Positions 35,820 to 57,381 of a stretch of 64,000 nt of DNA are shown here, piece after piece. The DNA is taken from assembly GCA_964540635.1 (NCBI GenBank), contig CAZINP010000001.1, forward strand, positions 93,364-157,363, written 5' to 3'. The translations under genes were made by a program, and so were the position numbers. The notes under the pieces were generated by a model. The model worked only from the letters and a program-made list of their open reading frames with translations. It was not told the DNA's origin and ran no database searches. Each line of letters opens with the position of its first letter. Position 1 is the first letter of the stretch. This stretch comes from an uncultured Gammaproteobacteria bacterium. Lineage in GTDB: Bacteria; Patescibacteriota; Patescibacteriia; Buchananbacterales; UBA6539.

Positions 35820-36893
35820 ATGCATCAACTTGACGATTTGGCTAAAATTAAGAAGTTGGACGGCGGTAATGTTTTGGATTCAATCCAACTGCTGGATAAA
35901 CAATTAAACCAGGCTTGGTTTGATTTTAAAAAGGTAAAGGTGCCGCTTGCTTTTGCCAAGATTAATAAAATTGTTGTAAATGGCATGGGTGGATCGGCTT
36001 TGGGTAGCGATATTATTAAAAATTTATTTGCCAGCAGTCTAAGGGTGCCGATAATTATTACAAATAGTTATGAAGCTCTGGGCTGTGTTGACGACAAAAC
36101 ATTATTTATTGCTTCTTCTTATTCCGGGACAACCGAGGAAACTTTAAGTGCAATCAAGCAGGCACAGGCAAAGAAAGCAAAAATTTTTGGCATCACTTCC
36201 GGTGGCCCATTGGGCGAAATGATTAGAAAAAATAAAATATCTGGCTTTGTTTTTGATCCAAAATTCAACCCTTCAAACCAACCGCGAATGGGTTTGGGAT
36301 ATTCTCTGGCGGCACAACTGGCCTTGTTTTCCAGATTAAATTTTTTGAAATTTTCCCAAAAAGATGTTGATAGCGCAGCTAAGACAATTGTAAAGTTTAA
36401 TCGACTTTTTGGTGCCAAAGTTCACTTATCTTCAAATTTGGCCAAACAACTATCAGTCTCAATACAAAAAAAAATTCCAGTGATAGTTTCGGCCGAATTT
36501 CTTGGTGGCAATGCCCATGTTTTAGCTAATCAAATAAACGAAAACGCCAAAAATTACGCCAGCTATTATTTAATTCCCGAGATGAACCATCATTTATTGG
36601 AAGGCTTAACTTTTCCCAGAGATAATCAGGGGATTTTGCACTTTTTGTTTTTTGGCAGCCGGCTTTATTCTCAAAAGAATCAAGCGCGTCTTCACATCAC
36701 CAAAGACGTGGTTAATAAAAATAAAATTAAATTTTTCAGTTATGAGTTAACGGCAAAAGATCGAATTTCTCAAGCTTTTGAGATGCTGGTCTTTGGCAGT
36801 TATTTTAGTTTTTATTTGGCAATTTTATATCAACTTAATCCCTCTAAAATTCCCTGGGTTGATTATTTTAAAGCTCAACTGAAAAACTACTAA
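35820..36893 (+). CDS. Bifunctional phosphoglucose/phosphomannose isomerase (SIS domain)
   Basis: VNGMGGSALG and SYSGTTEE SIS motifs. Confidence 0.65.
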   Translation: MHQLDDLAKIKKLDGGNVLDSIQLLDKQLNQAWFDFKKVKVPLAFAKINKIVVNGMGGSALGSDIIKNLFASSLRVPIIITNSYEALGCVDDKTLFIASSYSGTTEETLSAIKQAQAKKAKIFGITSGGPLGEMIRKNKISGFVFDPKFNPSNQPRMGLGYSLAAQLALFSRLNFLKFSQKDVDSAAKTIVKFNRLFGAKVHLSSNLAKQLSVSIQKKIPVIVSAEFLGGNAHVLANQINENAKNYASYYLIPEMNHHLLEGLTFPRDNQGILHFLFFGSRLYSQKNQARLHITKDVVNKNKIKFFSYELTAKDRISQAFEMLVFGSYFSFYLAILYQLNPSKIPWVDYFKAQLKNY

Positions 36894-36899
36894 TTTTTT

Positions 36900-38456
36900 A
36901 TGAAATTATTCAATAAGATCTGGCGGCAATTTGAAAACCAAATTTTTTGGCAGTATTTTTTGCTTTTTGTTTTGTCACTTTTTCTTTTTGGATATCTTCA
37001 GGCCGGTCCGACCTTGGCAGATCCCGATTCTTTTTATCACGCAAAAATTTCACAGCTGATTTATGAGCAGGGCATTGTTAAAGATTTTCCTTGGCTTACG
37101 GCCACCAATCTTTCGCAGGATTTTATTGATCATCACTTGCTTTATCATTTGATTTTAGTCCCGTTTGTGGCAGTTTTTAATCCTTTGGTTGGGATTAAAA
37201 TTGCCTCGGTACTTTTTGCCACGGCCTTTGTCTTGGTTTTTTTCTGGTTTTTAAGAAGCTTTAAGGTTCGTGGCGCTTTATGGTTCAGCCTGTTTTTACT
37301 TACGATTAACCCTTTTATTTTCCGGCTCAATTTAGCTAAAGCCCCGGCCCTGGTTTTAATTTTATTTTTTTTGATTATCAATTTTCTCTTTCAGCGGCGA
37401 TATTTGGCCTTGTCGCTTTGTTCTTTTATTTTTGTTTGGCTTTATGGCGGTTGGCCCAGCGCTTTGGGGTTGAGTTTTATTTATTTATTTTTAAATTTGA
37501 TTTTACCGGCTTCCTGGCGAGGCAATGTGGCGGTCAGGCTGGGAAAAATGAAAGTTACCTGGCAGGCACTGGTTGGCTTTTTGGCTTCGGTTTTTGGAGT
37601 GAGTATTGGCATAATTTTATCGCCATACTTTCCGCAAAACTTAAAATTTTATTGGCAGCAAGTTGTTGAAATCGCCTTGATAAATTATCAGGGGGTAATT
37701 AACGTTGGAGCAGAGTGGTATCCGTATTTACCTCAAGATTTAATTTTAACCTCTTTGCCCTTTGCGATTTTTGTTGGCTTGGCTTTGATTATTTTTATTT
37801 TAAATATTAGGCACCAGCCCATAGTTAATTGGTACATTTTAATTTTAACCTTGATTTTTGCCGCTTTAACCTTTAAATCTAGGCGTTATGTTGAATACTT
37901 TATTCCTTTATCATGGTCTTTTGTGGCTTTAACGATAAATAATTCTTTGGATGAAATTAGAAATTATTTTTCAAAAATTTTACCTTTGCCGTATCAACGG
38001 CTTTTTCCTCTTATTTTATTTTTGGCCTTTTTGCCGATATTTTATCATGATTTAAGTCTTGTTAGAAATGATTTTTTGAATGGCGTTTCTTTTTCGCGTT
38101 TTGCCCAGTCCTCGGTTTGGTTAGAAAAAAATTCAAACCAAGGCGACATTGTTTTTCATTCTGATTGGGATGAATTTCCAATTCTTTTTTATCACAATCA
38201 CCTTAATTATTATTTGGCGGGCTTGGATCCAACTTTTACTTATAAATATGATCAGAACGTTTATCGCCTTTGGACCCAGATTACGGCCGGGTACAATGTA
38301 GGCAATTTGTCCAGAATAATAAGTCAGGTTTTTGGCGCTCGTTATGTTTTTATTGATGTTAATCAAAATTCTGATATGGTTAATCTTTTCTCCAATCAAA
38401 TGGATTTTAAAGAGGTCTATCGTGATCAGGAGGCAGTAATTTACGAAATTAAATGA
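36900..38456 (+). CDS. Polytopic membrane protein, putative GT-C-fold glycosyltransferase
   Basis: About 13 TM helices with an early periplasmic-loop acidic motif (ADPDSFYH). Confidence 0.45.
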   Translation: MKLFNKIWRQFENQIFWQYFLLFVLSLFLFGYLQAGPTLADPDSFYHAKISQLIYEQGIVKDFPWLTATNLSQDFIDHHLLYHLILVPFVAVFNPLVGIKIASVLFATAFVLVFFWFLRSFKVRGALWFSLFLLTINPFIFRLNLAKAPALVLILFFLIINFLFQRRYLALSLCSFIFVWLYGGWPSALGLSFIYLFLNLILPASWRGNVAVRLGKMKVTWQALVGFLASVFGVSIGIILSPYFPQNLKFYWQQVVEIALINYQGVINVGAEWYPYLPQDLILTSLPFAIFVGLALIIFILNIRHQPIVNWYILILTLIFAALTFKSRRYVEYFIPLSWSFVALTINNSLDEIRNYFSKILPLPYQRLFPLILFLAFLPIFYHDLSLVRNDFLNGVSFSRFAQSSVWLEKNSNQGDIVFHSDWDEFPILFYHNHLNYYLAGLDPTFTYKYDQNVYRLWTQITAGYNVGNLSRIISQVFGARYVFIDVNQNSDMVNLFSNQMDFKEVYRDQEAVIYEIK

Positions 38457-39700
38457 TAAAAATTTTTTTTAAATATCTTGATGTCACCAAGCTGGAAAAG
38501 GTGATACTTGTTGATATCATTTTTTTCTTTTTTGCGGCTGTTTTGTTTTTTAACTTTTTCTTACCAAATACTGAGTTTAAAAATTTCATTGAAAACGGAG
38601 CGGAGTTTAGTCAATTGTCCGAGTCATTTCTTTCTGGCCGCCTTGACTTACAAAAACCCGGTGATTTGGATTGTTCTTATGGTAACGAAAAATGCTATTG
38701 GGCTTTGGGCCCGGCGCCCGCCGTGTTTTTATTGCCGTTTGTTTTTTTAGCTAAGCTTTTTGGGCAATTTTTTTTCCAAGGTTATTTGAATTTTTTCCTG
38801 GTTGTTTTTATATTTTTAATTTGTTGGCTTCTAGCTAAAAGATTTGGTTTTGATAAACATGATTCTTTGTGGCTTGCTTTTGCCTTTTGTTTTGCTTCGG
38901 TTTTTTTAAGCGCTGCTTTTTATTCAAGTTCTTGGCATTTTTCCCATGTTGTTAATACGTTTTTTTTATTATTAAGTTTCTTGGAATTTTTTGGCAAAAA
39001 ACGTTATTGGCTTATTGGAGTTTTCTTGGGTGCTGTTTTTGCTACACGTTTAAACTCCGGACTTGCCATTATCTTTTTTATCTTGGAAATTTTGTTTGAT
39101 CGTGAGGCGGTGTGGAAAGAAAAAATTAAATCACTAAGCTTGATTTTTTTACCAATTTTTGTTTGTTTTTTGGCTTTGGGCGCTTATAATTATGCTCGTT
39201 TTGATAATTTTTTTGATACGGGTTATGCCAGGGCTCAGAATGGCCAACCATTTCAACAATATTTGAAAGAAAAATTTGGTCTTTTTAGCTGGCACTATTT
39301 ATTAACAAACGCTTATTACTCACTTCTTAAATTGCCCGAGCCAATTCTTGATTTTGGATATATGCTAAAGGCGCCGTATTTTAGAGTTAGTCCTCTGGGC
39401 CTTAGTTTCTTTTTTGTCTCACCAATATTCTTTTGGATATTTTTTGCCGGATTTAAAACAAAAACCTTGAAATTTCTTTATTTAACTTCGTTTCTGATTT
39501 TGCTCTCGGTTCTTTTGTATTTTAATAGCGGATACCTTCAGTTTGGTCCTCGATATTTTATGGATTTTCTACCCTTGCTGTTCATTGTTTTGCTTTATAG
39601 TTTTAAAAATTCAAGGCTTACGGCCAAATCAAAAATTTTAATTACCACAAGCGCTTTTCTTAATTTGTATTTATTCTTAGGTTTTTTTATCCTGTTTTAG
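38453..39700 (+). CDS. Polytopic membrane protein, putative GT-C-fold glycosyltransferase
   Basis: About 11 TM helices; ATGA overlap with the upstream gene. Confidence 0.45.
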   Translation: MIKIFFKYLDVTKLEKVILVDIIFFFFAAVLFFNFFLPNTEFKNFIENGAEFSQLSESFLSGRLDLQKPGDLDCSYGNEKCYWALGPAPAVFLLPFVFLAKLFGQFFFQGYLNFFLVVFIFLICWLLAKRFGFDKHDSLWLAFAFCFASVFLSAAFYSSSWHFSHVVNTFFLLLSFLEFFGKKRYWLIGVFLGAVFATRLNSGLAIIFFILEILFDREAVWKEKIKSLSLIFLPIFVCFLALGAYNYARFDNFFDTGYARAQNGQPFQQYLKEKFGLFSWHYLLTNAYYSLLKLPEPILDFGYMLKAPYFRVSPLGLSFFFVSPIFFWIFFAGFKTKTLKFLYLTSFLILLSVLLYFNSGYLQFGPRYFMDFLPLLFIVLLYSFKNSRLTAKSKILITTSAFLNLYLFLGFFILF

Positions 39701-39703
39701 TAT

Positions 39704-40426
39704 ATGAAAATTGTTATTGCCGTACCGGCATATAATGAAGGAAAAATTATTGAAGCCAATATTTTAAAGCTGGCGGAGTTTGCCGGCCAAAAAATAAAAG
39801 ACGAATGGGTGGTGGTGGTTGCCGACAATGCTTCACTTGATAATACTGCCGAGATTGTTAAACGCATGGCGCTCAAATTTTTGCCAATTAAATATCTTTT
39901 TGTGCCCGAGAAGGGCAAGGGCCATGCGATTAAGGCGGCCTGGGAGTCAGAGCTTGCCGATATTTATATTTTTATGGATGCTGATTTATCGACGGACATT
40001 TCGGCCCTACCTGAGTTGATAGAAAAAATAAAAGCCGGTAACGACTTGGCCGTCGGTTCGCGTTATTTGGCTGACTCTAAGGTAACTCGATCAATTTGGC
40101 GAATTATTTTTTCAAGATTTTATTTTTTTATTTTAAAAATGTTAATTGGCCTTAAGTCAAGCGATGCTCCTTGCGGTTTTAAGGCCATAAATAGTAAAAC
40201 TAAAGATATAATTTTGCCCCAAGTTGAAAATTTAGAATGGTTCTTTGATTCGGAACTATTGATATTATCCGAGAAAAATCATTTTTTGATTTCCGAGGTT
40301 CCCGTGGTTTGGCGAGATATTCGTGAAAGCAATGATAAAAGTCGGGTCAACCCCTTTGTGGTTGGATGGGATTATTTGAAAGAAGTAATTAGGCTTAAAA
40401 AAAGTATAAAGTCCAAAATAAGTTAA
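39704..40426 (+). CDS. GT2 glycosyltransferase (polyprenyl-phosphate sugar synthase-like)
   Basis: VPAYNEG ... VVVADNASLDNT ... DAD motifs. Confidence 0.7.
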   Translation: MKIVIAVPAYNEGKIIEANILKLAEFAGQKIKDEWVVVVADNASLDNTAEIVKRMALKFLPIKYLFVPEKGKGHAIKAAWESELADIYIFMDADLSTDISALPELIEKIKAGNDLAVGSRYLADSKVTRSIWRIIFSRFYFFILKMLIGLKSSDAPCGFKAINSKTKDIILPQVENLEWFFDSELLILSEKNHFLISEVPVVWRDIRESNDKSRVNPFVVGWDYLKEVIRLKKSIKSKIS

Positions 40427-40449
40427 TAATCTAATTTACATTAAAAAAT

Positions 40450-41157
40450 ATGGAAAAAATTTTTATAATTATCCCGACATATAACGAGAAGGAAAATTTA
40501 AAAAAATTATTGCCCCAAATTTTTGATTTAAATATTGAAGGCTTAAGCGTCTTGGTGGTAGATGATAATTCGCCCGATGGTACAGGTGAATTGGTTGAAG
40601 AATTAAAAAAAGATAATTTAAGCTTGGATGTTTTGCACCGTGAGCAAAAAATGGGTTTGGGTCGGGCCTATGTGGCCGGCTTTAAGGAGGCTTTGGCTCG
40701 AGGGGCGGATTATATTTTTGAAATGGACGCTGATCTTTCTCATGATCCAAAATATTTGCCCGATTTTTTAGAGGAGATAAAAATGGCCGATTTAGTTTTG
40801 GGTTCGCGCTACATCAAAGGCGGCGGGGTTTCAAATTGGAATTTACCGAGGCGTTTAATTAGCCGTTTTGGGAATATCTATGCTCGTAACATTCTCTGGA
40901 TGAAACCTCATGATTTAACGGGTGGCTACAAGTGCTATCGACGGCAAGTTTTAGAAAAAATCGGTTTGGATGAATTAAGTTCGGTCGGATATAATTTCCA
41001 AATAGAAACAACCTATAAGGTATACAAGCTTGGATTTAAAATCGTTGAAACCCCAATTATTTTTACCGAACGAGCCGAGGGGAAATCAAAATTCAGTCCG
41101 AAGATTATGTTGGAAAGTTTTTGGCGCGTCTTAATTTTAAGATTTAAAAAAATATAG
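40450..41157 (+). CDS. GT2 dolichyl/polyprenyl-phosphate mannose synthase-like
   Basis: IIPTYNEKENL ... VVDDNSPDGT ... EMDADLSHDP. Confidence 0.75.
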   Translation: MEKIFIIIPTYNEKENLKKLLPQIFDLNIEGLSVLVVDDNSPDGTGELVEELKKDNLSLDVLHREQKMGLGRAYVAGFKEALARGADYIFEMDADLSHDPKYLPDFLEEIKMADLVLGSRYIKGGGVSNWNLPRRLISRFGNIYARNILWMKPHDLTGGYKCYRRQVLEKIGLDELSSVGYNFQIETTYKVYKLGFKIVETPIIFTERAEGKSKFSPKIMLESFWRVLILRFKKI

Positions 41158-41167
41158 AATTTGAGCT

Positions 41168-41851
41168 ATGAAGGTTTCCGTGGTAATCCCGGTCTATAAC
41201 GAACAAGAATATATTTTGAAAACAATTGAAGCCGTTAGGGCTCTGGATTTTGGTGGTTGGGAAAAAGAGATTATTGTGGTTGATGACGGTTCCAGTGATC
41301 GTACGCCGGATATATTAAAATCAGAGTCAGGGATAAAGATTATTTTGAGTGACAAAAATCATGGCAAGGGTCATGCGCTTGCCCTTGGCTTTAATCAAGC
41401 AACCGGCGATATTATTGCCATTCAAGATGCGGATCTGGAATATTGTCCTTCAAACTTAATCGGTTTAATCAACCAAATTGTTAACAATAAAGCTCAGGTG
41501 GTTTTTGGAAGCCGGATGAAGGGCAATAATCCAATAGGTCATTGGCGATATTATTTGGGCAATCTTTTTGTTTCTTTTTTGCTTAATTTATTTTTTAATG
41601 CCCGTCTGTCGGATGTTGAAACCGGGCATAAAGTTTTTCTCAGGTCAGTAATAAGTGATATTGATTTTAAGGAGAAGGGATTCGGTTTTGAAATAGAGTT
41701 TACGGCAAGGGTTTTAAGAAAAAAAATTTTAATAACCGAGATGCCAATTATCTATTCTCCTCGCAAATTTTGCCAAGGCAAAAAGATTAAATGGCTTGAC
41801 GGCCTGGAGGCAATTTGGTTGATAATAAAGTATCGTTTTATCAGGTTATGA
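41168..41851 (+). CDS. GT2 glycosyltransferase
   Basis: VIPVYNE ... VVDDGSSDRT ... QDADLEY. Confidence 0.7.
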   Translation: MKVSVVIPVYNEQEYILKTIEAVRALDFGGWEKEIIVVDDGSSDRTPDILKSESGIKIILSDKNHGKGHALALGFNQATGDIIAIQDADLEYCPSNLIGLINQIVNNKAQVVFGSRMKGNNPIGHWRYYLGNLFVSFLLNLFFNARLSDVETGHKVFLRSVISDIDFKEKGFGFEIEFTARVLRKKILITEMPIIYSPRKFCQGKKIKWLDGLEAIWLIIKYRFIRL

Positions 41852-43512: not shown

Positions 43513-43514
43513 TT

Positions 43515-45176: not shown

Positions 45177-45184
45177 AAATTTTT

Positions 45185-48803: not shown

Positions 48804-48879
48804 GATATTATATTAATATTAAATTGTATAAAAGACAATAAAAAAAATCGGGGAGAGCGTCCCCGATTTTTTGTAAATT

Positions 48880-49302
48880 TTATTCAATTCCACCGGCGCC
48901 GGTCGCAATCAATAAATTATCAATGACAAAGTAGGTAATAATATAGGCGCAAACTACAATGGCAACGCCAATAACAGCCGCACTGATAATACCTTTGGCC
49001 TTGCTAATTTTATCATCATTGCCAGCGGCTGTCATCCAGGTAAAGCCCGCATATAAAATTAGAACCAAGAATATAATTCCCAAAAAGCCTAGAGCGATTT
49101 TGACGATGTTAGAAATTGATTCAGCCAAGGTGTTTGAGGAAACGTCATCTTGACCGTATATATCTTTAACCGGTTCAAGTTGTTCACCGATTAAATTTCC
49201 AATTTCGTCCCCGGCCGCAAAAGTCAGGGCTGGCGCGATTGCCACTGTCATTAAGTTGATGGCCAAGATTAGGCCAATCAAGCTAAAAACTTTAAATTTC
49301 AT
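48880..49302 (-). CDS. Pilin-like two-helix membrane protein, paralog 1 (VirB2/TrbC-like topology)
   Basis: Signal peptide, variable region, TM1 ending in YAGFTWMTAAGNDDKISKAKGII, then TM2. Confidence 0.55.
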   Translation of the reverse strand: MKFKVFSLIGLILAINLMTVAIAPALTFAAGDEIGNLIGEQLEPVKDIYGQDDVSSNTLAESISNIVKIALGFLGIIFLVLILYAGFTWMTAAGNDDKISKAKGIISAAVIGVAIVVCAYIITYFVIDNLLIATGAGGIE

Positions 49303-49430
49303 AGGCTTTTATTTATATTTAATTTACTTTTTTATTATATCAAATTTTATATAGATTGACAAATAAGCTTAAATGTGGTAATATTTAATGTTTCTTGGTG
49401 TGAAAATAAGGCAAAATAGGAGAATCTGCC

Positions 49431-49805
49431 ATGAAAAAAGTGCTCTTTGCGGCTGTGGCCGCGATGGTGCTTGGCGTTGGATGCGCCACGGTACCAAATG
49501 AAAACCTGTTGCGCCAAGGCGCACTGGTTAACTACTGCACCGACAATGCGGTGGTGTTTCTGGTCGTCGGTGATTCCGGCGACGGGTCGGTTTGCACCAC
49601 GGTGCCCAAGGCCCTTAAAACGCCCGAAGGCATCAAACCCGGTGTCGCCCCCGTCAGCCTGTATGGGAAGCGGTACTACTGGGTCGAGACGACCAAGGTC
49701 GGGTGTCAGCACCCTTATCAAAAAGGGAATATCTGGGTGGACAAGTTTCGCTCCGATACCCAAATTGAGGGGGTAGCTTACGACTTCGGGATTTACGCCC
49801 GATAG
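49431..49805 (+). CDS. High-GC lipoprotein, hypothetical
   Basis: Lipobox LGVGCAT. GC about 58%. Promoter TTGACA-17-TAATAT at 49359-49387; SD aggaga. Terminator at 49839-49872. Confidence 0.55.
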   Translation: MKKVLFAAVAAMVLGVGCATVPNENLLRQGALVNYCTDNAVVFLVVGDSGDGSVCTTVPKALKTPEGIKPGVAPVSLYGKRYYWVETTKVGCQHPYQKGNIWVDKFRSDTQIEGVAYDFGIYAR

Positions 49806-49922
49806 TCAACACCTTCCACCGGTTTTACCCGAGGCGGAGCGCTCTTAGCGCCCCGCCTCTTTCTTTTGCTGGAATAAAAAAAGACGGGACGCTAGGTCCC
49901 GTCTCGGATAATTTTATAATGT

Positions 49923-50354
49923 TTAATCCAGGCCAGCCCCACCGCGCGTTGCCTCAAGGGCCTGATCAATAACAAAGTAGGTAATAACGTAAGCCATTAA
50001 AATTATAAGCAAACCAATGACTGCTCCTTTCATGATGGCCTTGGCTTTATCAATTTTTTCCTCATTGCCGGCTGAGGTCATCCATAAAAAACCGGAGTAT
50101 AAAATTAACAGAAAGAAAAGTAAGCCTAAAAACGAAAGCAGCATTTTAAGAACCGCGCTAACCATTGAGCCGATTGAATATTGAGTGCCAAGGCCGGAGG
50201 TTTCAATAAAAGCCTGATTTTGCTTATCCAGCTCAGCTTGAGATTCGCTGTCTAGGAGTTGCATCTCTTGCTGGGCCAAAGCCGGCATTGCCATAAAACC
50301 CAAAGCAAAAATCATGGCGGTTAAAATTAAATTTTTTAAAATTGTTTTTTTCAT
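49923..50354 (-). CDS. Pilin-like paralog 2
   Basis: YSGFLWMTSAGNEEKIDKAKAIM motif. Terminator hairpin at 49884-49910. Confidence 0.55.
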   Translation of the reverse strand: MKKTILKNLILTAMIFALGFMAMPALAQQEMQLLDSESQAELDKQNQAFIETSGLGTQYSIGSMVSAVLKMLLSFLGLLFFLLILYSGFLWMTSAGNEEKIDKAKAIMKGAVIGLLIILMAYVITYFVIDQALEATRGGAGLD

Positions 50355-50356
50355 AT

Positions 50357-50779
50357 TTATGAGCTATAAGGCACCGAGGAAGTGCCGCTGATTAACATAT
50401 TGGCGACAAAAGTGTAAATGGCGGCCGCACAGATGATAATAATAATTCCAATAATTCCATTCTTAATTATGCTCTTGGCTTTTTCAATTTTTTCCTCATT
50501 GCCGGCAGAAGTTAGATATAGGAAGCCGCCGTAGACGGTAAAAGAAACGAAGATTATGCCAATTAGGGAGATAACCGTTTTGACGATTGTGCCAACGACT
50601 CTGGACAGTCCGGTTTCGTCAACCGAGGTGTCATAACCGGCGCCATTGCTGCCAGCAGCTTGGTTTAAAACTGAATTTATTGTATCGGGTTGAGTCGCCG
50701 CGGTCGGACTTTGGGCCAAGACGCTAAATGGTATTGTAAGAGCAGCAATCAAGCAAACGAATAAAATAATTTTTTTCAT
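50357..50779 (-). CDS. Pilin-like paralog 3
   Basis: Start placed at MKKIILF. YGGFLYLTSAGNEEKIEKAKSII motif. Confidence 0.5.
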   Translation of the reverse strand: MKKIILFVCLIAALTIPFSVLAQSPTAATQPDTINSVLNQAAGSNGAGYDTSVDETGLSRVVGTIVKTVISLIGIIFVSFTVYGGFLYLTSAGNEEKIEKAKSIIKNGIIGIIIIICAAAIYTFVANMLISGTSSVPYSS

Positions 50780-50792
50780 AAGTATAAGAATA

Positions 50793-51236
50793 TTAATCGG
50801 TGGTTTCAAATGGCTCATCCGATTGTGAACCGACATTATAACTCGTGGCGCGCCCAACGCCATATATAACAAAGCGGGTAATGGCGTAGGCGGATAAAAC
50901 AATAATTAGGCCAATAATACTGCCGCGCAAGATTGACTTTGCTTTATCAACTTTTTCCTCATTGCCGGCTGAAATTAAGTAAAGGTAGCCGGCGTAAACC
51001 GTATAGGTTAAAAAAATTAGACCAAGAATTGATAAGAAGACATTTATAATCTGGCCGATTGTTTGGGCAATTGGTCTGGAGCCAAAACCGGCCGACGAAC
51101 CAACCGTAGCTAGTTTGCCGGATATATTAAGGGTGCTTGCAGTACTGCCGGTTGTCTGAGCAAGAGCGCCTAGAGGTATGGCAACCAAGAAGGTGAGTAA
51201 GAAAATTGCAATTAATTTTTTTTGGATTATTTTCAT
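50793..51236 (-). CDS. Pilin-like paralog 4
   Basis: Start placed at MKIIQKK. YAGYLYLISAGNEEKVDKAKSIL motif. Confidence 0.5.
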   Translation of the reverse strand: MKIIQKKLIAIFLLTFLVAIPLGALAQTTGSTASTLNISGKLATVGSSAGFGSRPIAQTIGQIINVFLSILGLIFLTYTVYAGYLYLISAGNEEKVDKAKSILRGSIIGLIIVLSAYAITRFVIYGVGRATSYNVGSQSDEPFETTD

Positions 51237-51237
51237 A

Positions 51238-51630
51238 TTATTTGATTGTTTTTTCAAGGCTGGTGGTGACAAAGTAACTGATGCCGTAAGCAGAAAGCAC
51301 GACAATTAAACCGACTACGGCTGCTTTAATGATGTCTTTGGCTTTTTCAATTTCATCTTCTCGGCCCATGGCCATTAACCATTTATAACCGCCATAAATT
51401 ATTAAAACCAGAAAAATAACACCCAAAAAGCTAAGAAAAACACTGATGGCCGAGCCAACAATATTTAAGGCTTTGGTGTCATCCGACCCGGTAGAGGGCA
51501 GGTTAACGGCACTTAGAGCCCCTTGCATTTGAGTGGTTATGCCACTTGCTGCCAAGCAACCTAGGGTGGGGACGGCAATAATTGTTGAGGCGAGAATCAG
51601 GCTGAAAAAGATTTTTTTGTATTTATTCAT
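51238..51630 (-). CDS. Pilin-like paralog 5
   Basis: YGGYKWLMAMGREDEIEKAKDII; a divergent member. Confidence 0.5.
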   Translation of the reverse strand: MNKYKKIFFSLILASTIIAVPTLGCLAASGITTQMQGALSAVNLPSTGSDDTKALNIVGSAISVFLSFLGVIFLVLIIYGGYKWLMAMGREDEIEKAKDIIKAAVVGLIVVLSAYGISYFVTTSLEKTIK

Positions 51631-51638
51631 AATTAAAT

Positions 51639-52049
51639 TTAAGCCGAAACACGGCCGATATTAATTAAGATGAATTCGGTAATTATTCTGGCAGAAATTA
51701 TGATTATCAAGCCAATAATAAATTGTTTAATCATCTCTTTGGCCTTTTCGATTTGTTCTTCATTGCCTTTAGCTGTCATCCACAAAAAGCCGGCATAAAT
51801 TACGCCCAACAAGAAAACGGTGCCCAAAAAAGTCAAAAGATAATTAACAATTTTCATTAAACTGTTTAAAAATGTGGTTTGATCAACCTTAACCGCCTGT
51901 CCGCCACCAATAGCCGTATCGGTGTAAGTTTTTACGCTTCCAGAAATTCGATCAAATACCGAAGCGGCATACAAACCGGGGGCAAAGGTTAATGCTAAAA
52001 ATAGGGAGATCAGTATTAAGGCGAATAAATGTTTTTTTAAATTTTTCAT
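51639..52049 (-). CDS. Pilin-like paralog 6
   Basis: YAGFLWMTAKGNEEQIEKAKEMI. Confidence 0.55.
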   Translation of the reverse strand: MKNLKKHLFALILISLFLALTFAPGLYAASVFDRISGSVKTYTDTAIGGGQAVKVDQTTFLNSLMKIVNYLLTFLGTVFLLGVIYAGFLWMTAKGNEEQIEKAKEMIKQFIIGLIIIISARIITEFILINIGRVSA

Positions 52050-52456
52050 GAGGTTTGAATAGTGGTTCCTAAAATAAATAAGGCGATTTCAACTATAATG
52101 CGTGCAGAGAGAATAATGGCTAAGCCGATAACGGCGTTAATCATAAGGCTCTTGGCTCTGGTTACCTGCTCTTCGTTGCCCTTGGCCATAAACCAAAGAT
52201 AGCCGGCATAAATGATATTTACCATAAAAAGCGCTCCCATTAGAAACAGCATGCCATTTAGGAAATTTACCCAAGCCGGAACAAATTCAATTGATGGTTT
52301 ACCGTCACTTCCTTGGCTGTATCCCGCACTTTTACCGGTGGCGGAAAATCCTTTGATAATTGTGTCAAAGGCGCTGGCCGAAGCGGCTTGGGCCCAAAGT
52401 AATCCAAAAGTTAAAATCGAAGCAGTATTAAAAATTTTTTGACCGATATTTTTCAT
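52046..52456 (-). CDS. Pilin-like paralog 7
   Basis: YAGYLWFMAKGNEEQVTRAKSLM. Confidence 0.55.
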   Translation of the reverse strand: MKNIGQKIFNTASILTFGLLWAQAASASAFDTIIKGFSATGKSAGYSQGSDGKPSIEFVPAWVNFLNGMLFLMGALFMVNIIYAGYLWFMAKGNEEQVTRAKSLMINAVIGLAIILSARIIVEIALFILGTTIQTS

Positions 52457-52459
52457 ATA

Positions 52460-52852
52460 TTAATTTCCGGTTGCTGCTTTAAGGGCGGCCAGCATGGTAT
52501 AAACCAAAGCGTATGAAAGAAAAATAACAATCATGCCGTTTATGCCGTTGACAATAAAGCCTTTGGCTTTGCCGATTTTCTCTTCGTTGCCGCCAGCTGT
52601 CATCCATAAGTAACCCCCAACCAAAGTAATTGTCATAAACACGACACCAACAACGGCAAACATATAATTTACAAATCGTCCGATTATTGTTGGCAGGTCG
52701 TTACTGGTTTTAAGGCCGGTATCGCCGGCAGTTTGATTGAGTCCGGCCTGGACCTGTCCCAAGCCGGTTGAGGCCGTGTCAGCTAAAACTAAACCCGGCA
52801 GAATAATTAGAGCCAGAAGACAGAAAATAAATATGTGTTTTTTAAATCTCAT
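52460..52852 (-). CDS. Pilin-like paralog 8
   Basis: VGGYLWMTAGGNEEKIGKAKGFI. Confidence 0.55.
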   Translation of the reverse strand: MRFKKHIFIFCLLALIILPGLVLADTASTGLGQVQAGLNQTAGDTGLKTSNDLPTIIGRFVNYMFAVVGVVFMTITLVGGYLWMTAGGNEEKIGKAKGFIVNGINGMIVIFLSYALVYTMLAALKAATGN

Positions 52853-52935
52853 GTCCGTAGTGTGTTAAAGGGGAGACCCCAGAAAAAACCGGCAGCCTCC
52901 CCTTGTTTTCGTATGTGAGTTAAGAAATTCTGAAA

Positions 52936-53295
52936 TTAGATTGCGCCAGTTGCGGTTAAAAGCTGAGAAATCACAAAGGTAGCCAAAGCGTAGGCCGTGA
53001 AAATAATTACCAAGCCGATAATGCCGGCAGTAATTACCTTTTTGGCTTCACCAACTTTTTCCTCATTGCCGCCGGAAGTCATCCACCTGAAGCCACCCCA
53101 GAGAATAATGATGATGGCTAAAATGCCCAAGAAGCCCAATAAAACGTTGACGACATTCATAACGCCCTCGCGAATATCATTGGTACCTAAGCCGGTGTAA
53201 GTGCCATATTCAATACCGGTGTCTAAAGCCAAAACCGGCATTACGCTTAAAGCGAATATGGTGGTTACGGTCATTAGGGTTGCGATTTTTTTCAT
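52936..53295 (-). CDS. Pilin-like paralog 9
   Basis: Start placed at MKKIATL with SD gggagg. WGGFRWMTSGGNEEKVGEAKKVI. Confidence 0.5.
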   Translation of the reverse strand: MKKIATLMTVTTIFALSVMPVLALDTGIEYGTYTGLGTNDIREGVMNVVNVLLGFLGILAIIIILWGGFRWMTSGGNEEKVGEAKKVITAGIIGLVIIFTAYALATFVISQLLTATGAI

Positions 53296-53423
53296 TTTTT
53301 TTGCACCTCCCTTCAAAACTTTTGTTTTGAAAAATTATTAAATTTTAATTAATATTCTTATCTAATTATAATAAATTATGTATAACTGTGTCAAACAATA
53401 GTTTTACCACAGTTATACATAAT

Positions 53424-54230
53424 TCATTCAGTAAAAAGGTTAGAGCAAGTGCAGCTGAAGTTTGTGCTGACCGCCTCACCAGCTTCATTTTGTCCGCCAA
53501 CCATCAATACATTACACGTGCAATCGGGGCAAGATTCGGCACAGCTGCTTTGACAAAGACTTTGAGCCTCACTGTATGTTATTTCTTTGTCGGTATAAGA
53601 AAAGCTACACCTGTGTTCTTCCCTTGTTTCATCTGCTTGAGGTGTTGGTTGAGCTTCTATGTTTGGCGCCACTGCCGTGTTGGGGTTTGATTGTGTATTT
53701 TCTGATGGCGTCTGTGAATTACTCTGACTTTGGGTGGCGCCAGAACCGGGTGATTCAATTTGTTGGGTTTGAAACCAATTTTGGTTAAAAATTTGAGCGG
53801 TGGCGCCAACTTGACCTTTGGTTAAAGCGGCGATGGTGGTATTTACGATTAACCAAGAAGTTAGCATGATTACCAGGCCGACAACGGCCGCGGTTATTGC
53901 TTGCTTGCCCTTTTCTATCATTTCCGGTTTACCGGCAGAAAGTATCCAGAGTACTCCGCCGTACAAAAAGGCCAAAAGCGCCAAGCTACCGGCTAGGCCG
54001 AGCAATAATTGTGTAAAATTTACTACTGTTTGCATTATTTCGTTAAGACCGCAATCATTGACATTTCCACTTGAAGCTCCGGTATCAGTACACTTGCTTG
54101 GTATTAATCTGCCGCCTGATATGCCGATGGCGGAAAGAAAAGCGTTACCTTCAGCGGCTAGGGCGGGAGTTATTAAAAATAAAAACCCAATTAAAATCAG
54201 GCCTACGGTCAAGAAGTGTTTTTTTCTCAT
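53424..54230 (-). CDS. Pilin-like paralog 10 with a C-terminal S/T/Q-rich linker and Cys-rich domain
   Basis: YGGVLWILSAGKPEMIEKGKQAI core. After it comes a roughly 130-aa extension with 9 Cys (CSFSY...CQSSCAESCPDCTCN...CTCS). Confidence 0.5.
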   Translation of the reverse strand: MRKKHFLTVGLILIGFLFLITPALAAEGNAFLSAIGISGGRLIPSKCTDTGASSGNVNDCGLNEIMQTVVNFTQLLLGLAGSLALLAFLYGGVLWILSAGKPEMIEKGKQAITAAVVGLVIMLTSWLIVNTTIAALTKGQVGATAQIFNQNWFQTQQIESPGSGATQSQSNSQTPSENTQSNPNTAVAPNIEAQPTPQADETREEHRCSFSYTDKEITYSEAQSLCQSSCAESCPDCTCNVLMVGGQNEAGEAVSTNFSCTCSNLFTE

Positions 54231-54246
54231 ATTATATTTATTCTAA

Positions 54247-55638
54247 CTAGTAAGTTTGCTGAATTTTTTGAACCGCCAATTCAACCGCATCTTTTAATTC
54301 TTGGCCATTTCTGACCATTTCAATCATGGAATTAAAATTTTGCTGCATTGTTTGCGGATCTTTGCCTTGGTACCAGCTTTTAGCGGTTAAAAGTTGATCG
54401 GCAAAAACTTTTAATTTATCGTTTGCCTGTTGATCAGTAACCAGCGCGCGCAAAGCCGTGGGCTTGCCGGTGGCCGTAAGATACTTTTCCGCTTCGGCTT
54501 TTTTGGAGATGAATTGAACAAAGTCCCAAGCTTCATTGATATTTTTACTCTTTTTTGAAACGGTATTTATGCTGTAATTGGCAAAATTAATTTCCGGACG
54601 GCCTTCAATTTGCGGAATTTTGCTGATACCATAATTGAGCTTGCCGCCGCGCTTGGTTTCTAAATATTTAATGTCGCTGAAATAGCCAAAAATCATAGCG
54701 ACTCTGCCCTGGGCAAAAGCATCCAAAGAATTAGGAAATGAATCGTTCCAGGTATAGACTTCCCTTGAGGGGTTGGAAAAATCAGTAAAAAATCTGATGG
54801 CTTCCGGACCGGGATTGTAATTTTTTATTGTAATATCTTGTGGAACAACACCAAAAGTGACTTGATTGCCGGTTGTCATTTTTGCCCCATTCTGCATCAT
54901 AAGAAGTGATAAAATGTCGGCTGAATAATTAATGTTTTTTCCAGACCCCAAGGCCGCACCCGACTGAACCAATTCGCCGTTTTTATCTTGATAGGTCAAA
55001 GCCTTTACGTTTTGTTGCAAGGCCAGCCAATTGGTTGGCGGTAAAGGGATGCCGGCGTTATTCATCAGGTCGCGATTATAAAACATAACCAGGGTGTCCA
55101 TATAAAGCGGCAAGCCGTAGATTTTATCGTCCCTGACAACATCACCATAAACTACATCCAAATAAGCGTCTTTTAATTGAGACGGAGTAATACTTGTGTT
55201 TTCCCTGACTTCGGTGATAGTTTCTTCTTTGATATTTAAAGTTTTTTGAACATACTGATAAGCTACTTTGGTTTTGGCTGGCATGGGTTCAATCTTTGAA
55301 AGATATTTGGTAAGCAAGGTGTTGTTAATGGTGAAAATGTCCGGACCGCGATCTTCGGCCAAAGCATTGAGAAGCTCTTTCTCAAATTCTTCTTCCCTAA
55401 GCTTGCGATAGGTAATGGTGATGTGCGGGTGCTGGGCGCGATAATCGTTAATCATTTGTTCATAAGAAGTTGAGTCATCTTCAAAGCCCCACCAGGTCAG
55501 TTCAACCGGCTGCAGCGCTTGTTGTTCGGAGGGAGTAATAAAATTACAGCGAAAACCTGAGCCAAGCAAAAAAGAAATTAAGAGAAGTGAAACCGTGATT
55601 TTTAATTTTTTGTTTTTCATAAATTTATTCCAGACCAA
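54247..55638 (-). CDS. Extracellular solute-binding protein (family 1, sugar-type), lipoprotein
   Basis: Signal peptide and Cys; LTWWGFEDD...YRKL SBP_bac_1-like N-terminal half. No permease or ATPase genes adjacent. Confidence 0.6.
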   Translation of the reverse strand: MVWNKFMKNKKLKITVSLLLISFLLGSGFRCNFITPSEQQALQPVELTWWGFEDDSTSYEQMINDYRAQHPHITITYRKLREEEFEKELLNALAEDRGPDIFTINNTLLTKYLSKIEPMPAKTKVAYQYVQKTLNIKEETITEVRENTSITPSQLKDAYLDVVYGDVVRDDKIYGLPLYMDTLVMFYNRDLMNNAGIPLPPTNWLALQQNVKALTYQDKNGELVQSGAALGSGKNINYSADILSLLMMQNGAKMTTGNQVTFGVVPQDITIKNYNPGPEAIRFFTDFSNPSREVYTWNDSFPNSLDAFAQGRVAMIFGYFSDIKYLETKRGGKLNYGISKIPQIEGRPEINFANYSINTVSKKSKNINEAWDFVQFISKKAEAEKYLTATGKPTALRALVTDQQANDKLKVFADQLLTAKSWYQGKDPQTMQQNFNSMIEMVRNGQELKDAVELAVQKIQQTY

Positions 55639-55658
55639 TTTTTAAAATTAATGTCGGG

Positions 55659-56525
55659 TTAAATTATTTTTTTTAAATATTTTTTGAATTCATCTTTTAT
55701 GTCTTTGTCCTTAAGGCCGAATTCAACATTGGCTTTAAGCCAGCCAAATTTATTGCCCAGATCATAAACTTCGCCTTCAACAACTTTGGCATAAATTGGG
55801 CGCTTTTTAAGTAAATTGGCAATAGCATCAACCAGCCAGAGTTCGTTGTCTTTGCCTAATTTGGTATTCTCCAAAGCCTCAAAAATATCAGGAGTTAAAA
55901 TGTAACCGCCCAACGAACCAAGACGACTCTTAGTTTTTTCCGGACCGGGTTTTTCTACAATTGATTTTGATTGATAAACGCCGGGTTCAACCTCAATACC
56001 TTCAATGACCGCATATTTTTTAGTTCCTTCGTCATCAATTTCTCTGGCCGTGATCACGGGGTCGCCGTATTTTTCAAAAGTATCAATTAATTGGCGAATG
56101 TGAGGTTTTTTTCCGCAATTCCAAATATCATCTCCCCAAACAACGGCAAATGGTTCATTGCCAATGATTTGTTTGGCATTGAGGATTGGGGTACCGTTGC
56201 CGTAGGGTCCTTTTTGACGAATATAAATAAAGTTGGCCAGTTCCGCCACTTCTTTGATTGATTCGCACTGTTTGGTTTTTCCGGCCTTGGTTAAATAATT
56301 TTCTAAATATTCATTGCGATCAAAATGATCTTCTATTGCTCGTTTGGTTGAACCGGTAACTAAAATAACGTCAGTAATTCCGGCCTTGGTTGCTTCTTCA
56401 ACTATGTATTGAATGATCGGTTTATCTAAAACCGGCAGCATTTCTTTAGGTTGAGCTTTTGTCGCCGGTAAAAAACGTGTACCTAAGCCGGCAACAGGGA
56501 TGACAATTTTACGAATTTTGGCCAT
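55659..56525 (-). CDS. galU: UTP--glucose-1-phosphate uridylyltransferase
   Basis: KIVIPVAGLGTRFLPATKAQPKEMLPV N-terminal signature. Confidence 0.85.
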   Translation of the reverse strand: MAKIRKIVIPVAGLGTRFLPATKAQPKEMLPVLDKPIIQYIVEEATKAGITDVILVTGSTKRAIEDHFDRNEYLENYLTKAGKTKQCESIKEVAELANFIYIRQKGPYGNGTPILNAKQIIGNEPFAVVWGDDIWNCGKKPHIRQLIDTFEKYGDPVITAREIDDEGTKKYAVIEGIEVEPGVYQSKSIVEKPGPEKTKSRLGSLGGYILTPDIFEALENTKLGKDNELWLVDAIANLLKKRPIYAKVVEGEVYDLGNKFGWLKANVEFGLKDKDIKDEFKKYLKKII

Positions 56526-56694: not shown

Positions 56695-56779
56695 GGAGGG
56701 GTGGCCGAGTGGTTGAAGGCGACGGTCTCGAACACCGTTTGGGCGCAAGTCCTCGCAGGTTCGAATCCTGTCCCCTCCG
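56695..56779 (+). tRNA. tRNA-Ser (anticodon CGA), class II with long variable arm, no encoded CCA
   Basis: Acceptor GGAGGGG/CCCCUCC, 3-bp D stem, anticodon stem ACGGU/ACCGU with loop CUCGAAC, long variable arm, T loop UUCGAAU. Confidence 0.8.
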
Positions 56780-56875
56780 ATTTATACGGGAAAACCGGTT
56801 TAAGGCCGGTTTTTTTAAATTGTTTTTTATTGGTTTTTTTGTTATATTTATTTAAGTTAATAATTAAAAAATATA

Positions 56876-57381
56876 TGAAAAAACTCTCTACCATTTTTTT
56901 GATTCTGCTTTTGTCGGTATTTTTTGCCGGTTGTTCCAAAGAGAAGGAAAAAGCAAAGGAATCTTTTGGCAGCCAAGATCTTAATTGTCAGGCGGTTTGC
57001 GCCAAAGCTTCATCGCTTTGCCCGACGATTATGCCCAATGAATTTTGTCTGCAGGCTTGCCCTTTTTGGAGCGATGAACAAAAGCAACAATTCAGTCAGA
57101 CCAAAAATTGTCAGGAAATGGCCGGCCTTGATGGTGATGAGGCAGAATCATCAAACCAAGAACAGGAAGATAATACTCAGGCTGACCAGAGTGATTGCGA
57201 ATTAGCTTGCTCTAATTATGCCCTTAAGTGCCTTTCTTCGTCTGAAGATACAAGTCAGGCGGCTTATAATCAAAAATTCTTTTCTTGCATCCAAGACTGT
57301 TCTGGCTGGAAAACAAGCAAGGCCGAGTGCGTGATCAATGCTTTGGACTGTTCTTCCATTACCAATGATTGTGATTTATAA
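56876..57381 (+). CDS. Cys-rich acidic lipoprotein
   Basis: Start placed at MKKLSTIFL; lipobox FAGCS; 16 Cys. The track's upstream extension overlaps the tRNA. Confidence 0.5.

Follow-up and report, generated by a model that had tools for sequence, protein, structure and literature searches.

Gene content of the locus

Within a 64-kb stretch of DNA (hereafter the window) from a tiny-genome bacterium of the Patescibacteria (CPR), we examined a 20-kb block, located at positions 35820-56525, wherein three genes for family 2 glycosyltransferases (GT2) resembling lipid-sugar synthases and six genes for polytopic membrane proteins that are candidate glycosyltransferases of the GT-C type lie beside ten genes for VirB2-like pilins. 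An earlier reading of the same DNA (the original prediction) had described this block as a candidate system for the glycosylation of displayed surface pilins. A check of the open reading frame (ORF) list and the sequence finds all ORFs of the block where that prediction had placed them, including the convergent meeting of two gene sets at 46833-46843. The eight membrane proteins that it had listed for examination are reduced to six polytopic GT-C candidates by our count.

The plus-strand set opens with a gene for a PGI/PMI-like protein, followed after a spacing of 6 bp by the gene for a membrane protein that we call M1, and then by genes for a second membrane protein (M2), the three GT2 proteins (GT2a, GT2b and GT2c) and three paralogous membrane proteins (P1, P2 and P3). 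The minus-strand set is read in the order GalU-like protein, substrate-binding protein (SBP), ten pilins and a protein of family DUF2079. The two sets face each other tail to tail, and the 3′ ends of the P3 and DUF2079 genes share 11 bp.

Putative lipid-sugar synthases and precursor enzymes

The three GT2 genes, all on the plus strand, occupy positions 39704-40426 (GT2a), 40450-41157 (GT2b) and 41168-41851 (GT2c). Their products are soluble proteins devoid of transmembrane (TM) segments, which match PF00535 with E values of 4.5e-23, 1.4e-32 and 4.3e-35, respectively, and which carry the DxD-type motifs 'MDADL', 'MDADL' and 'QDADL'. The best NCBIfam matches are AglJ, dolichol-phosphate (Dol-P) hexose transferase, ArnC, PpgS and PgfS, all far below the equivalog cut-offs. 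Specifically, GT2a is matched best by PgfS and then by AglJ, Dol-P-hexose transferase and ArnC, GT2b resembles AglJ and Dol-P-hexose transferase, and GT2c is closest to these same two models (TIGR04182 AglJ, E = 6.5e-30, 104 bits versus a cut-off of 325). At the family level, these similarities point to polyprenyl-phosphate sugar synthase-like enzymes, as originally predicted. Furthermore, a 783-aa protein from Patescibacteria (P0039) consists of an N-terminal GT2a-like domain fused to a complete P-type GT-C protein, and it therefore provides direct evidence that GT2a-type and P-type enzymes work together. From this fusion, and from the adjacency of the Dpm1/AglJ/ArnC-like GT2 genes, we infer that the GT-C proteins of the block use polyprenyl-phosphate-linked donors.

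Each gene set begins with a gene for sugar-precursor metabolism. The PGI/PMI-like protein (35820-36893, plus strand) combines SIS and bact-PGI_C domains (PF10432, E = 2.5e-28) and matches the NCBIfam models of bifunctional PGI/PMI enzymes (E = 1.8e-73) below their cut-offs; the adjacency of its gene to that of M1 is kept in most of the related loci described below. The GalU-like protein (55659-56525, minus strand) matches PF00483 and, over its full length, TIGR01099 (E = 3.8e-94), with a score of 315.1 bits that lies just under the cut-off of 326.8. These two enzymes would supply precursors for the system, but both may be the products of housekeeping genes.

Polytopic proteins with a predicted GT-C fold

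M1 (518 aa; 36900-38456, plus strand) is composed of approximately 13 helices followed by a C-terminal alpha/beta domain. The genes of P1 (41815-43512), P2 (43515-45176) and P3 (45185-46843) follow one another on the same strand, and their products, which are joined in a single P-family alignment, are mutually 33-37% identical over their full length. Neither M1 nor the P proteins have any match in Pfam (E <= 0.1 for M1), NCBIfam or the sequences of the PDB. Likewise, comparison of M1, M2, P2 and the DUF2079 protein with the sequences of solved structures, both as single sequences and as profiles, returned nothing relevant, including no oligosaccharyltransferase (OST) for M1.

After these empty sequence searches, the link to GT-C enzymes came by comparison of folds. 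AlphaFold models of M1 and of P2, which was the paralog chosen for modelling, were built on homolog alignments and reached predicted local distance difference test scores of 92.9 and 91.7. Both models superpose on solved GT-C enzymes through their polytopic N-terminal membrane domains. The top 15 Foldseek matches of the M1 model are all catalytic subunits of OSTs (STT3, AglB or PglB), with AglB and STT3 the best among them, and the model reproduces the overall OST-type fold, wherein a C-terminal globular domain packs on the TM domain. The C-terminal domain of P2 is likewise predicted to be AglB-like, and M1 and the P family are homologous across their final helices and C-terminal domains (hhalign, 97.7%). 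The models thereby confirm the GT-C fold that had been proposed for these proteins. A reading of the polytopic proteins as transporters is rejected, since the significant structural matches contain no transporter.

Conserved acidic residues, whose loop positions were judged from predicted helices, fit GT-C catalysis in three of the families. In M1, the sequence D41-P-D43 lies directly after the first TM helix, and across 40 sequences both aspartates reach a conservation of 90% or more; G270-x-E272-W-Y is also conserved, in a later loop. In the P family, all 36 sequences share D54, which lies in the first outer loop, and in DUF2079 proteins D47 of the first loop is invariant among seven. M2 has a comparable D73 that is at least 90% conserved in 33 sequences.

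M1 also carries the sequence 'VFHSDWDEFP' (residues 417-427) after the beta-strand that opens its C-terminal domain, and W423 and D424 therein are invariant among 40 homologs. From secondary structure and from known OST sequences, rather than from superposition, we take this W-D pair to occupy the site of the OST motif WWDYG. The strict motif is absent from M1, only the central W-D being common to both, and a W-D is missing from the P family at the position corresponding to W423-D424. M1 also matches no STT3 Pfam model and so falls outside GT66 as defined by sequence. Because the strict WWDYG motif is absent and the equivalence of the sites derives from secondary structure, we call M1 OST-like rather than an OST.

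The two remaining polytopic proteins are probably also GT-C enzymes. The DUF2079 protein (656 aa; 46833-48803, minus strand; PF09852, E = 1.3e-49) belongs to a family that is presumably a member of the Pfam GT-C clan, is predicted to end in an extracytoplasmic part of approximately 270 aa, and aligns with M1 over its N-terminal 230 aa (hhalign, 73.6%, E = 2.9e-5). M2 (415 aa; 38453-39700, plus strand) has no C-terminal soluble domain and is weakly GT-C-like: it matches DUF2079 with E = 2e-3 and the NCBIfam putative glycosyltransferase LA_3751/LA_3752 with E = 1.3e-8, which is below the cut-off, and some of its homologs weakly match GT87, DUF2079 or PMT_2. Its profile aligns with those of DUF2079 (hhalign, 75.7%) and M1 (64.9%). 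An alignment with the proteins that fill the M2 slot of distant loci shows 15-21% identity and yields no significant hhalign match, so the label 'M2' in those loci may cover two families.

The M1 and P families differ in size. More than 811 homologs of M1 were found, the named ones being labelled Patescibacteria or unclassified bacteria, and 48 homologs of the P family, the few named ones being mostly from Buchananbacteria or other Patescibacteria.

An array of VirB2-like pilin genes

All ten small genes of the minus-strand set score above the gathering threshold of PF18895 (T4SS_pilin), with 29.2-44.9 bits versus 26.6. These genes are pil1 (48880-49302; E = 3.3e-9), the run of seven paralogs from pil2 to pil8 (49923-52852; E = 1e-6 to 2e-11), pil9 (52936-53295), and pil10 (53424-54230; E = 1.1e-10). 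Individually, pil2 to pil8 are located at 49923-50354, 50357-50779, 50793-51236, 51238-51630, 51639-52049, 52046-52456 and 52460-52852, and the ORFs at 50357 and 50793 begin at internal ATG codons rather than at the starts of the longer TTG-initiated frames. The product of pil9 matches TrbC/VirB2 (PF04956) as well, with 34.7 bits versus a cut-off of 27.9.

The alignments reveal a common build, in which a signal peptide of the Sec type precedes a mature N-terminus that is variable and 25-45 aa long, and then a two-helix hydrophobic hairpin whose short charged loop, (S/T)AGNEEK(I/V)xKAK, is conserved, followed by a short tail. By these sequence features, the products of the array are pilins of the VirB2/TrbC type, which belong to type IV secretion systems (T4SS). 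A reading as type IV pilins is rejected, given that the signals are of the Sec type and end in AxA-like sites, and that no G-F-T-L-I-E motif is found. Thus, the genes first described as pilin-like do encode ten predicted pilins, but of a T4SS type whose tandem arrays have already been reported (PMC12102498). No gene for VirB4, VirB6 or a coupling protein was found by Pfam among the scanned ORFs of at least 150 aa, a result that applies to the window.

Identity within the array averages 36% and reaches at most 54%. Each pilin has a positional ortholog in one related genome (locus L001), and eight of the ten also have one in another (L003), at identities of 39-86%; pil3 and pil4 both find their best match in the fourth pilin of L003. 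The notion of a variable pilin set does not survive this comparison, and because the pilins are positional orthologs we also reject an interpretation of the array as a set of cassettes or as a source of antigenic variation.

Two members of the array stand out. First, pil9 is the most conserved, at 84-86% identity to its orthologs versus 40-55% for other genes of the block, and its mature N-terminus keeps the pattern 'G-T-x-x-x-L-G-T-x-D' across distant loci. It is probably the candidate for the major, highly expressed subunit. Second, pil10 carries a C-terminal extension of approximately 130 aa (residues ~140-268), in which a linker rich in Ser, Thr, Gln and Pro leads to a domain that contains some 12 cysteines. 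The pilin nearest to the SBP gene is extended to a variable degree in other loci too (180, 191, 256 or 551 aa), and pil10 might serve as a subunit of the tip or as one resembling an adhesin.

Associated genes and transcription signals

Upstream of the pilins in the minus-strand set lies the SBP gene (54247-55638), whose product is of the carbohydrate-binding kind and matches SBP_bac_1 (PF01547, E = 2.7e-28) and, weakly, the NCBIfam models GanS and MalE. No ABC permease or ATPase that could serve it is present in the window. The earlier description of an orphan, sugar-type SBP lipoprotein is upheld in its first two parts, whereas a canonical lipobox is missing, though close relatives share a cysteine located beyond the hydrophobic region.

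The array is split between pil1 and pil2 by a small lipoprotein-like gene on the opposite strand (49431-49805, 124 aa, 'MKKVLFAAVAAMVLGVGC...'), which has a GC content of 55-60% versus 36-40% in its surroundings. This gene has its own TTGACA-17-TAATAT site (49356-49384), an AGGAGA ribosome-binding site and terminator-like hairpins (49820-49906). It has no Pfam match, but a counterpart with 37% identity occupies the same place in L001 (E = 3e-21), while L003 lacks it. In composition, the gene resembles a foreign sequence inserted long ago, and it is probably not part of the system.

Several other signals were noted, all of which, like those above, are matches to consensus patterns. A perfect sigma-70 consensus (TTGACA-18-TATAAT; 53394 to 53365 on the minus strand) precedes pil9, and promoter-like sites precede pil1 (49362 to 49334) and the GalU-like gene (56640 to 56612). 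Terminator-like hairpins are located between pil1 and the DUF2079 gene (a 13-bp stem, 48872 to 48842) and after pil2 (49905 to 49881). The two operons of the original prediction are therefore retained here as two convergent gene sets, of which the minus-strand set has internal promoter-like and terminator-like sites and an interrupting gene on the opposite strand.

Conservation of the neighborhood

The arrangement of the block recurs in related genomes. Contigs carrying homologs with 40-53% identity share the order RuvC, YebC, PGI-M1-(M2 or another enzyme)-(GT2)n-(P)n, convergent with DUF2079-pilin(n)-SBP-GalU. A scan with a DUF2079 profile of one genome per GTDB species yielded 63 loci, which were annotated with custom hidden Markov models, and 46 of these have both a strong DUF2079 match and an upstream region of 3 kb or more. 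Pilin genes are positioned directly upstream of the DUF2079 gene in 37 of the 46, mostly preceded by SBP and GalU genes, and the arrangement is kept in loci whose DUF2079 protein is as little as ~25-30% identical to that of the window. A scan of metagenomes anchored on M1 gave the same picture in its best 80 loci, all of the same clade. The synteny between pilin array and glycosyltransferase genes that the original prediction proposed to look for thus extends to dozens of related genomes.

The labels of the DUF2079 loci include Buchanan-, Komeili-, Kerfeld-, Kuenen-, Uhr- and Falkowbacteria, and also 'Parcubacteria'. Seven records entitled 'uncultured Gammaproteobacteria bacterium' (L013, L014, L017, L024, L029, L031 and L041) carry the full block GalU-SBP-pilins-DUF2079-P-GT2-M1; the labels of these metagenome-assembled genomes are probably wrong.

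While this frame is kept, its content varies, with 3-12 pilins, 0-3 GT2 proteins and 0-3 P proteins per locus. Loci with more pilins tend to have more P paralogs (Spearman 0.39, p = 0.02, n = 35), a figure that ignores kinship and that we do not use as evidence. The variable slot is also filled by other proteins: relatives have members of other GT-C families (PMT_2 or GT87/MptA_B), an LPG_synthase_TM protein (L005) or a membrane enzyme of the sulfatase family. The latter, a 716-aa Sulfatase (PF00884) membrane protein with SGSH_C and Cu-binding_MopE domains, occupies the M2 slot in a genome with a 922-kb contig (L003, 4759-6909, plus strand; L004, 490-2640, plus strand). It belongs to the family of LtaS, EptA and the pilin phospho-form transferases, which hints at the transfer of phospho-substituents in the pathway.

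The tail-to-tail junction itself is also preserved. In every locus examined, the P and DUF2079 genes overlap at their 3′ ends by 7-16 bp, even though the proteins are 32-51% identical (13318-13328 in L001, 11655-11665 in L003, 17955-17963 in L005, 14437-14452 in L006 and 15855-15861 in L007). With this overlap, the end of each half's transcript would be antisense to that of the other.

Such conservation might simply reflect an ancestral order of genes that has stayed frozen near the origin of replication, where these reduced genomes would rearrange slowly. In that case the pilins would serve only a T4SS encoded elsewhere, the PGI and GalU genes would be housekeeping genes, and no functional coupling would exist. 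The position of the block is in keeping with this idea. The window, which is AT-rich (GC 0.31-0.44), contains yidC (21391-22137, minus strand), dnaA (23123-24496) and dnaN (24759-25913), which puts the locus at a distance of ~12-30 kb from where replication probably starts. T4SS-related genes are reported to be kept near dnaA in Patescibacteria, and the position of the block fits this pattern. The flanking genes (RuvC and YebC, then genes of glycogen metabolism) are likewise conserved, indicating general synteny beyond the cluster; the sampled loci seemingly all belong to one large clade; and the internal promoter-like and terminator-like sites suggest separate transcription units. In addition, T4SS genes of the class ABY1 are found in other contexts, with comF, recG and radA (PMC12102498). 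In contrast, the order GalU-SBP-pilins-DUF2079, convergent with P, persists while the content of the block changes freely, and the GT2-GT-C fusion demonstrates functional coupling for some of the block at least. The order is also kept at 25-35% protein identity, which is unusual for unrelated genes. On balance, we consider an absence of functional coupling quite improbable.

The window also holds other genes related to the envelope or to sugars. A class A penicillin-binding protein with a C-terminal Big_7 domain (26398-29250, minus strand), an L,D-transpeptidase with TSP3 repeats (18004-18765, plus strand) and a GalT-like galactose-1-phosphate uridylyltransferase (31929-32876, minus strand) are encoded nearby.

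Proposed function of the block

The locus very probably encodes a glycosylation system that depends on polyprenyl-phosphate sugars and acts outside the membrane. With a confidence that falls just short of even, we further propose that it is the Buchananbacteria-type version of a surface-glycosylation block that is widely conserved in Patescibacteria, and that its acceptors are surface proteins, including the adjacent VirB2-like pilins. The analysis itself yields the gene identities, the GT-C fold of M1 and the P proteins, and the conserved synteny, whereas we infer the donor chemistry, the direction of flow and the identity of the acceptors. The pathway might operate as follows. The PGI/PMI-like and GalU-like enzymes would supply precursors, and at the cytoplasmic face the three soluble Dpm1/AglJ/ArnC-like GT2 enzymes would charge polyprenyl phosphate with sugars, which a putative flippase would move across the membrane in lipid-linked form. 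Outside, the six GT-C proteins (OST-like M1, the three OST/AftA-like P proteins, M2 and the DUF2079 protein) would transfer the sugars to surface proteins that are secreted or anchored in the membrane. Foremost among the candidate acceptors would be the ten VirB2/TrbC-like pilins, which could be modified at their exposed Thr/Gly-rich N-termini, at their C-tails and in the Ser/Thr/Gln/Pro-rich linker of pil10. The orphan SBP may be an extracytoplasmic accessory that handles glycans.

Two arguments lead us to favor surface proteins and pilins as acceptors. First, the nearest structural relatives of M1 are all OSTs, which modify proteins. Second, the adjacency of pilin and DUF2079 genes outlasts deep divergence and heavy turnover of content, with the order GalU-SBP-pilins-DUF2079 convergent with P...M1-PGI being kept where the proteins are only 25-50% identical. 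The presence of other GT-C families in the variable slots of relatives, the Thr/Gly enrichment of the exposed pilin segments and the linker of pil10 lend additional support. The proposal as a whole is also backed by the invariant acidic residues in the first outer loops of M1, P and DUF2079 proteins, the lipid-phosphate sugar synthase matches of the GT2 proteins, the P0039 fusion and the preserved convergent overlap.

Several observations weigh against this proposal, under which the pilins are putative glycoproteins. The exposed N-termini of the pilins are moderately rich in Thr, Gly and Ala, and their combined Ser and Thr content of 18% versus a background of 10.7%, which is driven by Thr (2.35-fold), is a modest enrichment. 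The Ser/Thr-rich leaders of the original prediction thus exist in a milder form. Furthermore, 203 pilin N-terminal regions show no enrichment of N-x-S/T sequons (0.66 versus 1.0 expected per 100 aa), a count that bears on the candidate acceptors and not on the enzyme; sequon-based N-glycosylation of the pilins, with sequons below the expectation from composition, is therefore unsupported. M1 lacks the strict WWDYG motif and any STT3 Pfam match. The hairpin between pil1 and the DUF2079 gene and the separate promoter-like sites of pil9 and pil1 make co-transcription of the pilins with the DUF2079 gene only putative. Four loci (L035, L046, L049 and L051), of which L049 and L051 are of the Kuenenbacteria type, keep DUF2079-P-M1 without adjacent pilins, and gene order within one class-level clade may in part be synteny inherited near the origin, given the position of dnaA.

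Neither a flippase nor an initiating phosphoglycosyltransferase was found in the window, although a divergent flippase or T4SS component is possible among the ORFs without Pfam matches. Six such ORFs flank the block, at 7909-9339, 15980-17539, 56701-57381 and 57388-58356 on the plus strand, at 29354-30376 on the minus strand, and at 31156-31932; the first five encode proteins of 226-519 aa.

A further consideration is that six GT-C proteins in series are more typical of the assembly of a polymer or lipoglycan than of protein O-glycosylation. The GT2 and GT-C enzymes might accordingly build or decorate an envelope glycoconjugate other than protein, such as a lipoglycan or a polymer resembling wall or teichoic acids, with the pilins as mere neighbors that share a surface theme. 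By analogy, the block could be likened to the assembly of lipomannan (LM), lipoarabinomannan (LAM) and arabinogalactan in mycobacteria, where polyprenyl-phosphate sugars feed the MptA/B, Emb and Aft enzymes, or to the glycosylation of lipoteichoic acid by CsbB/YfhO, and the orphan SBP might act as a chaperone on the periplasmic side, like LpqW of mycobacteria. The number of GT-C proteins and lipid-sugar synthases resembles polymer assembly, and the GT-C proteins have affinities to AftA and GT87. Relatives insert GT87/MptA_B-type and PMT_2-type GT-C proteins, the LtaS/EptA-type enzyme of L003 and the LPG_synthase_TM protein of L005. Moreover, some lineages keep the glycosyltransferase cluster without adjacent pilins, as noted above, and among the loci of our scan that lie outside Patescibacteria, DUF2079 genes usually have GT2 neighbors and never pilins. 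Other observations count against this alternative. The closest structures to M1 all belong to enzymes that modify proteins, and a chance neighborhood poorly explains why 37 of 46 loci keep the pilins next to DUF2079 at low identity. As for the sulfatase-family enzyme, a role as a phospho-form transferase for pilins, comparable to PptA of Neisseria, is equally conceivable. Finally, no genes for polymer export or ligation (LCP, Wzx/Wzy or an ABC exporter) were seen in the window. We regard a non-protein glycoconjugate as a serious possibility that is nevertheless less probable than not, and we continue to favor surface proteins, including the pilins, as acceptors.

In its most specific form, our proposal would hold that the VirB2-like pilins of Patescibacteria are glycoproteins modified by a dedicated set of previously unclassified, OST-like GT-C enzymes (the M1 and P families and the DUF2079 subfamily) by way of polyprenyl-monophosphate sugars, which would make this the first such system for conjugation-type pilins. 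M1-type enzymes would then be bacterial relatives of the archaeal and eukaryotic OSTs, with a degenerate 'xWDxx' motif and a specificity that does not depend on sequons and is probably O-linked. We consider this full version unlikely as it stands.

Relation to known systems

The general logic of the block has several precedents. In the Agl pathway of haloarchaea, AglJ and AglD are Dol-P sugar synthases, AglB is the oligosaccharyltransferase, and AglS is a GT-C enzyme that adds mannose from Dol-P-mannose to the protein-bound glycan. The block resembles this pathway in that Dpm1-like GT2 enzymes would charge a lipid monophosphate, with an OST-fold protein and further GT-C proteins at the outer face, and in that GT2c has AglJ as its best NCBIfam match and M1 has AglB and STT3 as its best structural matches. 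In contrast to Agl, M1 has neither a strict WWDYG motif nor an STT3 Pfam match, the candidate acceptors are not enriched in sequons, six GT-C proteins are present, no cytoplasmic glycosyltransferases that extend a lipid-linked oligosaccharide were identified here, and the host is a bacterium.

Bacterial three-component systems provide a second comparison. These include GtrA/GtrB/GtrC, ArnC/ArnT, CsbB/GtcA/YfhO, Ppm1/Pmt, and the Pgf system of Streptococcus mutans, in which PgfS acts with PgfM1 and PgfM2 on surface adhesins; the targets of Pmt and Pgf are proteins that monoderm bacteria secrete or carry on their surface. Like them, the block pairs GT2 polyprenyl-phosphate-sugar synthase-like proteins with GT-C proteins that would act outside the membrane, and PgfS is the best NCBIfam match of GT2a. 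Unlike them, it has no flippase of the GtrA/GtcA type at the locus, its GT2 proteins lack the C-terminal TM helices of GtrB, its multiplicity is much higher (three GT2 and six GT-C proteins), and M1 and the P proteins have no Pfam model.

A third comparison concerns pilin glycosylation. TfpW of Pseudomonas aeruginosa is responsible for the arabinofuranosylation of group IV PilA, and PilO and PglL are O-oligosaccharyltransferases. As in these systems, pilin genes in the block are located on the same strand as, and immediately upstream of, the gene for a polytopic glycosyltransferase-like protein, and exposed Ser and Thr residues are the proposed acceptors. However, those enzymes act on type IV pilins, which bear class III signal peptides, whereas the present pilins are of the VirB2/TrbC type with Sec-type signals. 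To our knowledge, glycosylation of VirB2/TrbC-type pilins has not been reported.

The LM, LAM and arabinogalactan battery of mycobacteria (MptA/B/C, PimE, EmbA-C, AftA-D, Ppm1 and the SBP-like lipoprotein LpqW) differs in that its genes are dispersed, whereas those of the block are clustered beside pilins. In addition, the block, which is part of a minimal genome, shows no sign of a pathway for the phosphatidylinositol mannoside lipid anchor or of arabinose and decaprenyl chemistry.

Arrays of VirB2 genes themselves are known from a 2025 survey, which counted 441 arrays, each with 2-11 genes, across 383 assemblies of Patescibacteria, among them the essential array of Ca. Southlakia epibionticum, and which does not mention glycosyltransferases (PMC12102498). 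Like those arrays, ours consists of tandem, diverged, chromosomal and origin-proximal VirB2-like genes, and the maximum identity is 54% in both cases; the mean identity within arrays is 36% here versus 25% in the survey. Its authors read the arrays in terms of antigenic or host-range variation, whereas the paralogs of the present array are individually conserved as positional orthologs. The present array also differs in being embedded in a GT-C cluster and unlinked from virB4 within the window.

It follows from these comparisons that the combination of a GT2 lipid-sugar synthase with GT-C enzymes (as in Gtr, Arn, CsbB/YfhO, Ppm1/Pmt, Pgf and Agl), the succession of pilin and GT-C genes for type IV pilins (TfpW), and arrays of VirB2 genes were each known already. 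What appears to be new is the linkage of such an array with a battery of GT-C enzymes in dozens of species representatives of Patescibacteria. A literature search, whose coverage was incomplete and which can offer only absence of evidence, found no earlier account of this linkage, of the M1 and P families, or of a proposal that conjugation pilins are glycosylated.

Implications

Patescibacteria account for a large share of bacterial diversity and live attached to other cells, yet their surface biology is almost unknown. VirB2-like arrays are widespread among them and are needed in the one species tested, but their function is unexplained. The link between arrays and GT-C enzymes yields the concrete hypothesis that the pilins, or the envelope that surrounds them, are glycosylated. 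The work further suggests that organisms whose genomes measure ~1 Mb devote some 11 kb of them to extracytoplasmic glycosylation. Two GT-C families, M1 and P, for which neither Pfam nor NCBIfam has a model, are also defined by this work. If M1 were indeed a protein glycosyltransferase, the OST superfamily would extend to a new bacterial lineage, with altered recognition of its acceptors.

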